4,210 nt of DNA from a virus (taxonomy: Duplodnaviria > Heunggongvirae > Uroviricota > Caudoviricetes). The first letter of the stretch is position 1; every line of letters begins with the position of its first letter. Below the pieces are notes generated by a model that was not told where the DNA came from, ran no database searches, and saw only the letters and a list, made by a program, of their open reading frames with translations. The stretch lies in the IMG/VR virus record IMGVR_UViG_2657245091_000011; one strand, given 5' to 3'. The translations under genes were made by a program, and so were the position numbers. Of the stretch, positions 1 to 4,210 are shown piece after piece.

Positions 1-101
1 ATCATTACCGTGCCGCCGTACTGGTCGCGGTAAATATCACCGCGCGTAAATTTAGGGTGAGTGTTGCCACTGGCAGTTAAGCCAGAATATTTAAGTTTCA
101 T
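1..101 (-). CDS. hypothetical protein, N-terminal 33 codons only (gene runs off the window start)
   Basis: ATG at 101..99 with GGAG about 10 nt upstream; frame open to position 3 (MKLKYSGLTASGNTHPKFTRGDIYRDQYGGTVM...); starts 5 nt after the stop of the upstream same-strand ORF. Not in the supplied ORF track because it is truncated. Confidence 0.4.
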   Translation of the reverse strand, partial: MKLKYSGLTASGNTHPKFTRGDIYRDQYGGTVM

Positions 102-106
102 TATTT

Positions 107-340
107 TTATTCTCCGGTGTGCTGTTCGTTATATCTGTCGTGCAATAAGTCTATTTCCTGCAACTCTGTTATTACAGGTTCAAGGAGAGTTATCAGTGAT
201 TTAATAATCCGCGCCTTCTTTACATCACGCTCATTATCGTCAAATGTTTCCAGCCACATTTGCAATATTTCGTACATACCTTCAGCGTAAGCAAGGGCAC
301 TAAATGCGCGGTCTATTGTTTCAATGTAAATATCACGCAT
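107..340 (-). CDS. hypothetical small protein (77 aa)
   Basis: ORF in supplied track; GAGGA 8 nt upstream of ATG (340..338); start overlaps the stop of the upstream ORF (ATGCGTGA); sequence looks protein-like. No family recognised. Confidence 0.5.
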   Translation of the reverse strand: MRDIYIETIDRAFSALAYAEGMYEILQMWLETFDDNERDVKKARIIKSLITLLEPVITELQEIDLLHDRYNEQHTGE

Positions 341-566
341 GGCTTACATCCTCAGGAAATTTTCTTCTGTAACGCGCCTCTGCCACATATTCCGCATAAT
401 CGGCGGCGATATTCAGTACATCAAGTCCCGTTGATTTATATTCTTTCGTGGAAAGTAAGAAAAAAGCCGCTCTAATAAGTTCTGGCATTGACGAAAGCGC
501 ATCAGCCGCATCATCAGGAACGCCGGAAAATTCTTGTTTCAGGGAATTAAAACGATCATCACGCAT
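333..566 (-). CDS. hypothetical small protein (77 aa); possibly the C-terminal half of a frameshifted or phase-variable 155-aa protein
   Basis: ORF in supplied track; ATG at 566..564 lies 2 nt downstream of a G9 run that can act as a Shine-Dalgarno; one extra G would put it in frame with the upstream ORF. Confidence 0.5.
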   Translation of the reverse strand: MRDDRFNSLKQEFSGVPDDAADALSSMPELIRAAFFLLSTKEYKSTGLDVLNIAADYAEYVAEARYRRKFPEDVSHA

Positions 567-799
567 AACCCCCCCCCATTTTCACAATCAGTAATCAGGA
601 TGGTTTTAGCCTCATTCAGTGCCATATCAGCACTAAATTGCATAACAGCCAGTGAGTGAGGAACGAAAGCCCCGGGATATTCTGTTTCGCTGGTGGCGTG
701 CTTATGTGCCCTGTCCGCGATAACAGAAATATCAATCAGCGCGTGCATCAGCGTTTTGATGGCTTCGGCGGCTGCGTCCGGTGTGGTTTTATTGTGCAT
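539..799 (-). CDS. hypothetical small protein (86 aa from ATG 799; the track's longer form starts at GTG 841)
   Basis: Within track ORF 539..841; internal ATG at 799..797 has AGGGGG 6 nt upstream, so preferred as the start; E. coli-like codon choice (CTG, GCG, GAA, ACC); C-terminal GGG codons are the G9 tract. Confidence 0.5.
   Translation of the reverse strand: MHNKTTPDAAAEAIKTLMHALIDISVIADRAHKHATSETEYPGAFVPHSLAVMQFSADMALNEAKTILITDCENGGGLCVMIVLIP
569..577. repeat. C9 (plus) / G9 (minus) homopolymer tract at the junction of two ORFs
   Basis: Nine consecutive C at 569-577, read directly from the sequence. Confidence 0.95.
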
Positions 800-989
800 A
801 GGTTTCCCCCTGGCGAATACGGGCGGCAAATACAGCAACACAACCGGACGGGCAAAGGTTACGCGCTTCGCGTTCCGTCCAGGCGGTTACGTGGATGATT
901 TGAGATTCTCCGGCACTCAGTGCCAGAAAACGCCACACAAAGGCAGTTTGTGTGTGCGCCAGACGTGGGGTATGCTGTGTTCCAGCCAT
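789..989 (-). CDS. hypothetical small protein (66 aa), first gene of the minus-strand operon
   Basis: ATG at 989..987 with AGGAG 8 nt upstream; same frame as the 3' end of the 318-aa track ORF; its stop lies 8 nt downstream of the next ORF's ATG (coupled). Confidence 0.4.
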   Translation of the reverse strand: MAGTQHTPRLAHTQTAFVWRFLALSAGESQIIHVTAWTEREARNLCPSGCVAVFAARIRQGETYAQ

Positions 990-1086: not shown

Positions 1087-1115
1087 AAATTAAATTCAAC
1101 TGAATCACAGGTCAA
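1087..1115 (-). promoter_or_regulatory. putative sigma70-type promoter for the minus-strand small-ORF operon
   Basis: On the minus strand, -35 TTGACC (plus 1110-1115), 17-bp spacer, -10 TAATTT (plus 1087-1092); hexamers identified by eye only. Confidence 0.3.
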
Positions 1116-1176: not shown

Positions 1177-1482
1177 ATGGCAAAAAACACTATCAACGAC
1201 AAATCAAAACAGATTTCAATTCGTATCCCACATGATGCTTTTGATGGCATGGAATCCGTAAAACTGGACGGCGAAAGCAACGCCGGATTCATAGTAACCG
1301 CCATGCGCGGGGAGATCGCCCGCCGCCAGGCAGAAGGAAGCAGTGAAAATCCTCTGATTTCTTCTCTCGATGCATTGGCGCAAGTGGAAAAAATTGGTAT
1401 TAAAGCTACGGAAGAACTCGGGCAACTTATCGCCATCGCACGCGAAGAACTCCAGCGCCGCAAGGCCAAAGAAGCGGAATAG
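1177..1482 (+). CDS. small DNA-binding protein, probably ribbon-helix-helix (CopG/Arc-like) transcriptional regulator (101 aa)
   Basis: AGGAGA 6 nt upstream of ATG 1177 (the track's GTG 1138 start is less likely); N-terminal KQISIRIPHDAFDGMESVKL...IVTAMRGEIARR fits a strand-helix-helix pattern by eye; intrinsic terminator immediately downstream. Confidence 0.6.
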   Translation: MAKNTINDKSKQISIRIPHDAFDGMESVKLDGESNAGFIVTAMRGEIARRQAEGSSENPLISSLDALAQVEKIGIKATEELGQLIAIAREELQRRKAKEAE

Positions 1483-2424: not shown

Positions 2425-2449
2425 AAAAAACCCCGCATTGCACGCGGGG
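2425..2449 (-). terminator. rho-independent terminator after the alpA-like gene
   Basis: On the minus strand, CCCCGC / GCGGGG stem (plus 2431-2449) with 7-nt loop followed by six U (plus A-run 2425-2430); 15 nt downstream of the alpA stop. Confidence 0.65.
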
Positions 2450-2463
2450 TATGAAAGATATTA

Positions 2464-4080: not shown

Positions 4081-4210
4081 CTACATCCAAAATGACGCAA
4101 TCCGGGAGTTTCGTGGCGTTCCGGTGATACTGCCGTCCGCCGCCGCCCGTTCACCTTCACGAAGCCAGATCCCCTGGTTATTCAGTTCGCGTTTCTGCTC
4201 AGGGGCAATC
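4081..4210 (-). CDS. 3' end (last 43 codons) of an unidentified gene, probably chromosomal, flanking the element
   Basis: Minus-strand frame open from the window end to TAG at 4083..4081 (...IAPEQKRELNNQGIWLREGERAAADGSITGTPRNSRIASFWM); E. coli-like codon choice; markedly higher GC than the adjacent int region. The plus-strand frame is also open, so strand assignment is not certain. Confidence 0.4.
   Translation of the reverse strand, partial: IAPEQKRELNNQGIWLREGERAAADGSITGTPRNSRIASFWM

Follow-up and report, generated by a model that had tools for sequence, protein, structure and literature searches.

A tightly coupled operon of small genes heads the replication module of a satellite embedded in a lambdoid prophage

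The DNA considered here, a stretch of 4,210 nucleotides from the IMG/VR virus record IMGVR_UViG_2657245091_000011 (Caudoviricetes), is referred to throughout as the window. Its positions 1-989 hold five small genes packed on the minus strand. These genes are the promoter-proximal part of a replication operon (an Icd-like gene, small open reading frames (ORFs), a DUF4222 gene, a RepA-type helicase gene and SSB), and the element that carries them is not a prophage but a satellite of about 10 kb, a helper-embedded phage-inducible chromosomal island (HE-PICI) lodged within the terminase large-subunit gene of a lambdoid prophage. What we observe is a conserved, selected and tightly coupled operon that heads the satellite's replication module and is accompanied by repressor-type control elements. 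The window is 100% identical to DNA of Escherichia coli O45:H2 FWSEC0003 (NZ_CP031916.1), in which the PGAP annotation gives the same five coding sequences, with ORF5 complete at 99 aa. The features of positions 1-989 are as follows.

989-789, minus strand: ORF1, 66 aa, Icd-like, the first gene of the operon
799-539, minus strand: ORF2, 86 aa in the G9 state found here, acidic and helical
566-333, minus strand: ORF3, 77 aa, acidic and helical, with its own ATG directly 3' of the G run
340-107, minus strand: ORF4, 77 aa, strongly acidic (pI 4.5) and helical
101 to beyond position 1, minus strand: ORF5, DUF4222 protein, its 5' third (33 codons) in the window
569-577: G9 tract on the coding strand (C9 on the plus strand) at the ORF2/ORF3 junction, 2 nt 5' of the ORF3 ATG

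The five genes are tiled. ORF1 and ORF2 overlap by 11 nt, ORF2 and ORF3 by 28 nt, and ORF3 and ORF4 by 8 nt, the last with the ORF3 stop and the ORF4 ATG in the motif ATGCGTGA; a gap of 5 nt then separates ORF4 from ORF5. A purine-rich motif resembling a Shine-Dalgarno (SD) sequence precedes every ATG: AGGAG for ORF1, GAGGA for ORF4 and GGAGAA for ORF5, each at 8 nt, GGGGGA at 5 nt for ORF2, and the G9 run itself at 2 nt for ORF3. A first-pass annotation had described just such a tightly coupled, co-directional operon adjoining int, alpA and bro, with five same-strand ORFs of 66, 86, 77, 77 and at least 33 codons, start/stop overlaps with one 5-nt gap, and an SD upstream of each, and the layout bears it out. 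That annotation had named coding signal and conservation as the check on its proposal. Pooled pairwise dN/dS is 0.37 for ORF1, 0.42 for the ORF2 core, 0.27 for ORF3, 0.31 for ORF4 and 0.35 for ORF5, and the gene order is retained in about 80 related IMG/VR loci; judged by these ratios, all five ORFs are real and under purifying selection. The count of five is correct for the window, but it is one tract-length state, and many relatives have four genes, with ORF2 and ORF3 fused.

How widespread is the operon? Part of the 1.2-kb operon region is matched in 1,433 of the 5,426 complete E. coli genomes, and a scan of the GTDB species representatives gave a single locus, in Shigella flexneri. The small-gene array between the Icd-like and DUF4222 genes is mosaic, with extra or alternative genes inserted or swapped at loci L002, L015, L020, L025, L031, L038, L053-L059, L066, L068 and L070. 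The extras include a 70/122/127-aa family and a 77-aa family that replaces ORF3 and ORF4 together, and some of the Icd-like proteins bear N-terminal extensions of 120-410 aa.

The nature of the host element is read from the longer locus L001 of NZ_CP031916.1, where a gene run of about 10 kb comprises int, an alpA-like helix-turn-helix (HTH) gene, Bro-N, a ribbon-helix-helix (RHH) gene on the opposite strand, the Icd-like gene, three hypotheticals, DUF4222, a RepA-family helicase (AAA_25), a small ORF, SSB and a ClpP-protease/major-capsid fusion. This run is flanked by the two halves of a terminase large-subunit gene (N-terminal at 18084-19088, C-terminal at 6940-8070), and lambdoid late genes surround the interrupted gene. 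The sequence CATCCAA is common to both element/terminase junctions, and positions 4084-4210 of the window are the 5' part of the interrupted terminase gene. HE-PICIs are a published subclass of the Gram-negative phage-inducible chromosomal islands (PICIs), with the zone order Integration-Bro-Replication-Late and with terminase among the insertion-site groups (Tommasini, Mageeney & Williams 2023, NAR Genom Bioinform, PMC10111431). The four zones are all found here, in an integrase with Arm-DNA-bind_3 and Phage_integrase domains, an HTH_17-like gene, Bro-N (5.7e-20), the AAA_25 RepA helicase, SSB and the ClpP/capsid fusion. Because the element splits the terminase gene and matches the published class and its four zones, we assign it to the HE-PICIs. 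The operon had been taken at first for an early, immunity or accessory module of a prophage; it is instead the head of a satellite replication operon, and it is not a free-standing accessory module.

The same operon is found in ordinary chromosomal PICIs as well, for example in E. coli O157:H7 between roxA and phoQ. In strain PV15-279 (locus L084, 1479987-1490423) the operon of the PICI at that site has G7 and a fused ORF2-3, and among the other products of the PICI are a PerC-family regulator, a major capsid protein, a decoration protein and a small terminase. Are the genes also found in phages? When 50,697 GenBank phage records were searched by tblastn (E <= 0.01), the Icd-like protein matched only vB_KppS-Ant, an induced capsid-forming PICI (cf-PICI) of 16.5 kb that carries an Icd-like domain, two small overlapping ORFs and a primase. 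DUF4222 gave one weak match in that collection, to an 8.6-kb Klebsiella record. At the DNA level the small-ORF genes found no match among GenBank phages, and four hits of 58-74 nt lay in the leader and promoter only. By these searches the operon appears to be satellite-specific and nearly missing from GenBank phage records.

What do the five genes encode? The first-pass annotation could place none of the products in a known family, which proved wrong for the first and the last of them. ORF1 matches the Icd-like family NCBIfam NF033153 over residues 17-60 (3.3e-18, 65.5 bits against a cut-off of 25), and also PHROG 29966 and 1743; the tblastn search with ORF1 did not reach P1 Icd among the phage records. 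'Cell-division inhibitor' is a family label for ORF1, a prediction from the family name. Full-length ORF5, from L001, matches DUF4222 (Pfam PF13973) with 82.1 bits against a threshold of 27, and the 33-aa fragment in the window alone scores 18.5 bits. Two of the five products therefore belong to named families that are functionally uncharacterized. ORF5 is a strongly basic protein (99 aa, pI 10.2) whose stop codon and the start codon of the replicase (helicase) gene share ATGA. The AlphaFold2 model of ORF5 has a pLDDT of 78 overall and of about 90 over residues 20-66, and predicts an SH3/Tudor-like barrel of five strands with a long basic helix after it; a BFVD search with the model returned uncharacterized or DUF1653 barrels only. 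Depending on the satellite, the DUF4222 gene precedes a RepA/AAA_25 helicase or a D5-type primase-helicase. As these replicase types are unrelated, the role of the DUF4222 protein is not tied to one of them, and the protein probably aids the initiation of replication or its control.

The three products in between are of another sort. They are acidic (pI 5.3, 4.8 and 4.5 for ORF2, ORF3 and ORF4), and their PHROG families have no assigned function. ORF2 corresponds to positions 1-77 of the 154 positions of phrog_2512 and ORF3 to positions 78-154; ORF3 also matches phrog_24341, and ORF4 matches phrog_2196 (2.8e-33). The conserved module of ORF2 is residues 1-77, the last nine residues being a frame-dependent tail. 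ORF4 has 421 close relatives, all of them E. coli 'hypothetical' proteins that keep the 77-aa length, and it is replaced by other small genes in some loci. A profile search of 1.84 billion cluster representatives yielded only 63 clusters for ORF2/ORF3, and eight longer or odd-length representatives of these, when scanned, had no Pfam domain. Sequence searches of the PDB with ORF1, fused ORF2-3, ORF4 (single sequence and profile) and DUF4222 found nothing below E of about 0.2, and PADLOC at E <= 0.1 found nothing for ORF1, fused ORF2-3, ORF4, DUF4222, the RHH protein, RepA or the next small ORF. On sequence grounds ORF2-4 are acidic, helical proteins confined to enterobacterial satellites. Their most likely mode of action is to bind proteins of the host or helper, and roles in host takeover, exclusion or defense against host immunity systems (anti-defense) are possible for them. 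Paralogy of ORF3 and ORF4, both of which are 77 aa, start with MRD and have ATGCGTGA junctions, was considered and rejected, as BLASTP and hhalign find no similarity; sequence comparison likewise found ORF4 unrelated to ORF2.

Upstream of ORF1 lie the control elements of the operon.

1087-1115, minus strand: operon promoter, with -35 TTGACC at 1115-1110, a 17-nt spacer and -10 TAATTT at 1092-1087
1074-1154: two operator-like inverted repeats, TGTGATT(C)..(G)AATCACA, 45 nt apart, in the intergenic region 990-1176
1074-1085 and 1103-1114: arms of operator 1, over the operon promoter
1124-1131 and 1147-1154: arms of operator 2, over the -10 (TATACT) of the RHH gene
1177-1482, plus strand: divergent YlcI/YnfO-family RHH gene, 101 aa
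990-1080, minus strand: operon leader of about 90 nt with a stable hairpin, arms at 1053-1046 and 1027-1020

A promoter at 1087-1115 and control by the divergent RHH gene through operator repeats had both been proposed at the outset, and comparison of alleles sustains the two proposals. In essentially all allele classes the -35, TTGAC(A/G/C), keeps the same distance (+61) from the RHH start codon. The -10 downstream of it differs with the allele (TATAGT, TAAATT, TACATT or TAAAGT; TAATTT here), and repeats specific to the allele stand on either side; the RHH gene's own TATACT is conserved in position and has a second repeat pair around it. The RHH protein matches NCBIfam NF041551 (2.8e-18, 65.7 bits, cut-off 30) and, weakly, the Pfam RHH family PSK_trans_fac. 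Across at least eight RHH allele classes (L002-L082), the sequence of the operator repeats changes together with the residues of the β-strand predicted to read the DNA: KSKQISIRIP pairs with TGTGATTC, KSQSLTARIP with TGTAAGAC, KSQQLNARFP with GTGAATACC and KSQALKARVP with GTGGGCCACAC. Because the repeats co-vary with the β-strand and the position of the -35 is fixed, we would place the operon under RHH control; the RHH protein likely represses both the operon and itself. The allelic pairs suggest that 'immunity types', and with them a repressor, may exist in the Gram-negative PICIs. We did not find a co-varying RHH/operator module described in the literature searched.

The leader hairpin, ACGCCCCG-N18-CGGGGCGT, is GC-rich and has no U-tract; the fold has a free energy of -34.3 kcal/mol (z = -2.84), and the hairpin is kept in loci with other RHH alleles. 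Rfam cmscan of the whole window at E <= 1 returned three chance-level matches to unrelated families, with no C4/CI/isrK RNA and none for the leader hairpin. A terminator-like hairpin inside ORF1 (954-934) was considered as an attenuator and rejected, since it is absent from other Icd alleles.

The G tract at the ORF2/ORF3 junction varies in length. Among 67 IMG/VR loci the tract is G7 in 23, G8 in 18, G9 in 14, G10 in four, G11 in one and G4 in three, and is interrupted in four; exact lengths in the 737 junction-bearing complete E. coli genomes are G7 (383), G8 (204), G9 (182) and G10 (28). With G4, G7 or G10, ORF2 and ORF3 form a single fused protein, of 154 aa with G7 and of 155 aa with G10, so that the fused 155-aa product of the first-pass annotation does exist in genomes. 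With G8, ORF2 ends in ...GGGYA* and its stop overlaps the ORF3 start (ATGCGTGA), as at the ORF3/ORF4 junction. With G9, the state of the window, the overlap is 28 nt and ORF2 acquires its 9-aa tail. The 86- and 77-codon ORFs first annotated are indeed present, but they represent states of one junction and the two halves of phrog_2512. The 86-aa ORF2 of the window occurs unchanged on 244 contigs, and its haplotype is also seen in the G8 form (79 aa) on 34 and in the fused 154-aa form on one; free ORF3 of 77 aa, in exact sequence, is on 991 contigs.

Does the tract change on its own account? Its length differs in 31% of locus pairs with identical 460-nt flanks, and in 93% of pairs with one or two flank differences, versus 73% of random pairs; on these comparisons the tract changes faster than its flanks. 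The lengths in complete genomes (383/204/182/28) fall off smoothly with no 3-nt periodicity, from which it follows that the frame is not selected, and the reading frame at the G tract looks nearly neutral. ORF3 keeps its own ATG and SD in every tract phase, which is why all phases are tolerated. Nor are the two halves always found together. In L053, L054, L056, L057, L059 and L066, ORF3 stands alone behind a different gene of 127 aa, after the G6 SD-like run CAGGGGGGTAAACATG, and in L068 and L070 ORF2 is present without ORF3 or ORF4. Distant cluster representatives mostly have one half only, those of the C-terminal half beginning with residue 1 at profile position 79. The simplest reading of these alignments is that ORF2 and ORF3 are separate genes and that the run arose by expansion of the ORF3 ribosome-binding region, within the final codons of ORF2. 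The variable junction was not found described in the literature searched, and the fusion and splitting of ORF2 and ORF3 by a G tract appears to be undescribed.

One might think that such a tract is a true contingency locus, a reversible switch between three states of ORF2 and ORF3 (fused, coupled and uncoupled), each with a phenotype. As in contingency loci, a G/C run of at least 7 lies in coding sequence and is polymorphic in length between near-identical sequences. Of the 75 G/C runs of at least 7 in 748 kb of related loci, 60 are at this junction; the tract stays a pure homopolymer in most lineages though glycine has other codons; its length is randomized at one or two base differences in the flanks, as the discordance figures just given indicate; and a single protein haplotype occurs in three tract states. 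On/off switching is not what is seen, however, given the ORF3 start in all phases and the lack of 3-nt periodicity, and no phase is in excess beyond clonal sampling. Within the O157-type clone the G run appears stable: clonal flanks carry exactly G7 in 344 genomes, with only single deviants among the matches listed. Interrupted, locked tracts exist, and an expanded SD explains the run more simply. A single difference within one strain was examined, and assembly error seems to account for it. Two assemblies of E. coli Nissle 1917 (L085 and L086) are set apart over 3 kb by three 1-nt indels, of which two fall in homopolymers (A7/A8 and G7/G8); with two further 1-nt indels beside it, the tract difference (G7 versus G8) is best taken for assembly error and not for phase variation. 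One of these assemblies thereby carries 'frameshifted' Icd-like and truncated YlcI annotations. We regard a true contingency locus as unlikely. A bolder form of the idea, in which a poly-G contingency switch in a satellite provides clonal hedging of helper or host interference, and is joined to allele-specific RHH 'immunity types', seems to us just as doubtful.

A different alternative concerns the operon as a whole. Could the Icd-like gene and the small ORFs be an abortive-infection or superinfection-exclusion module, in which an incoming phage protein is the trigger, growth stops and the population is protected? In the prophage-encoded growth-arrest module of strain ECOR61 (Silas et al., bioRxiv 10.1101/2023.04.06.535777), transposon insertions in an Icd-like gene and in the two small overlapping ORFs after it suppressed growth arrest triggered by a phage accessory gene. 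The gene order here is the same, as it is in the induced cf-PICI vB_KppS-Ant, and satellites are known to carry defense genes. The small ORFs of ECOR61, however, are of 62 and 64 aa, the likeness to ORF2-4 considered here being one of layout, and PADLOC has no match for any product. In nearly every satellite the operon is joined with the replicase, fitting a life-cycle role, and the arrest of growth on induction may be no more than a side effect of the satellite becoming active. We consider this alternative improbable, somewhat more so than the switch. Least of all do we credit the idea that the ORF2/ORF3 split is decay or sequencing error of one 154-aa gene, the window then holding four genes with one of them broken: no single state is commoner than the fused one (G7 in 383 of the 737 junction-bearing genomes) and homopolymer errors occur in complete assemblies, but about half of all genomes have the genes split, the exact 86-aa product and the stand-alone ORF3 recur on their 244 and 991 contigs, both halves have dN/dS below 0.5, and ORF3, with an ATG and SD of its own, stands as a distinct gene in other satellites and in the majority of distant relatives.

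We favor, with a confidence moderately above even, the reading of positions 1-989 as the head of the early/replication operon of an HE-PICI, with control, gene roles and junction as follows. Transcription would run leftward from the sigma-70 promoter at 1115-1087, which is overlapped by operators that the RHH protein, to go by the co-variation, would recognize. Induction of the helper would lift the RHH block, and the structured leader of about 90 nt and the tiled genes would then be expressed as a coupled unit. The Icd-like protein, if its family name is a guide, would hold back host cell division; ORF2, ORF3 and ORF4 would bind host or helper proteins; and the DUF4222 protein, translationally coupled to the replicase, would assist or tune replication. 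The SD region of ORF3 would have expanded to G7-G11 within the last codons of ORF2, fusion and fission being tolerated.

Several points weigh against this reading. The assignment of ORF1 to the Icd-like family is a profile match only, and the roles of all five products are inferred. ORF2, ORF3 and ORF4 have no Pfam or NCBIfam relatives in profile searches, and none in the PDB or PADLOC; the AlphaFold2 model of fused ORF2-ORF3 in its natural 154-aa form (20-sequence alignment) is all-helical with a mean pLDDT of 48 and is unusable. The -10 of the window is weak (3 of 6), for which reason a generic consensus scan missed the operon promoter. In published work on Gram-negative PICIs it is AlpA, not a repressor, that is the key regulator, essential for induction; because of this the role we give to the RHH protein is a new proposal. 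Finally, some differences in tract length between assemblies are sequencing errors, the case of Nissle 1917 being most likely a long-read homopolymer error.

A few observations on the rest of the element may be added. The satellite's ClpP-protease/major-capsid fusion (L001 8975-10864) is 51% identical to that of the prophage (L001 3260-5239), and may redirect capsid assembly. The longest ORF of the alpA-like gene (2464-2688), of 74 aa, shares 8 nt with the end of int, and the PGAP start is 21 nt later, giving 67 aa. A strong hairpin like an intrinsic terminator lies at 2430-2450 (minus strand), 3' of the alpA-like gene and 5' of the Bro-N gene. Between the convergent RHH and Bro-N genes there are terminator-like hairpins at 1514-1533, 1633-1660 and 1856-1879, the last bidirectional and inside the 3' end of the Bro-N coding sequence.

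What is new in all this? The class of element is published, and the operon has been catalogued without being studied. Most of the locus is of an ordinary kind, the G-run junction being the one detail that appears undescribed; both it and the co-varying RHH/operator module extend mechanisms already known. The small-gene operon is present, at least in part, in about a quarter of complete E. coli genomes, O157:H7 and Nissle 1917 among them, and its genes sit where the satellite commits to replication, yet they are annotated merely as 'hypothetical'. Placement in an HE-PICI frames the candidates: a master repressor whose operator specificity should be predictable, a protein that would arrest the host, three acidic small proteins as possible helper- or host-binding factors, and a replicase-coupled Tudor-like protein. 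There is also a practical warning, as the locus will be annotated as four or five genes according to tract length, and long-read assemblies can misjudge that length. If true, the contingency switch and the RHH 'immunity types' would be two undescribed layers of control in PICI biology.

How does the operon compare with known systems? The immI operon of phage P1, reportedly arranged c4 - icd - ant, is said to be the origin of the Icd name. It shares with the present operon a small Icd-family ORF that comes first, translationally coupled, in a repressed operon. Here, however, Rfam finds no C4/isrK-type antisense RNA and the downstream genes are unrelated to ant; likeness to P1 Icd is detectable by profile only, and division inhibition is a family prediction. 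A second comparison is with the master-repressor switch of the SaPIs, which are Gram-positive PICIs, where stl is divergent from the str-xis-rep operon. There too a repressor gene is divergent from the early/replication operon of a satellite, with operators in the shared intergenic region. The difference is in the proteins, a putative repressor of the YlcI/YnfO RHH kind here versus the Stl-type HTH of the SaPIs, and in the published models for Gram-negative PICIs, which rely on the activator AlpA.

The ECOR61 module is similar in having an Icd-like gene, small overlapping hypothetical ORFs and a primase that work as one unit, and its effect required all six linked genes, including the primase (10.1101/2023.04.06.535777). 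Its Icd-like protein, however, is of 122 aa and its small ORFs are of 62 and 64 aa, and its description is that of an exclusion system rather than of a satellite's replication operon. The poly-G/C contingency loci of Neisseria, Campylobacter and Helicobacter, among which C-terminal switching is included (PMC2823697, PMC8355987), share with the ORF2/ORF3 junction a G/C run in a coding region that varies among close relatives and shifts the downstream frame. In the satellite, by contrast, the downstream gene has its own start, so that a change of frame is not an off switch, and the length classes are without selection for frame. The closest relatives are the HE-PICIs themselves, which the present element resembles in its size of about 10 kb, in its position inside and co-oriented with a lambdoid late gene (the terminase large subunit), in having int and alpA at its upstream end, and in its Bro-N gene, replication genes (helicase, SSB) and captured late gene. 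The Icd-like gene, the small ORFs, DUF4222, the G tract and the RHH/operator module are absent from the published description (PMC10111431), and they fall between its 'Bro' and 'Replication' zones.

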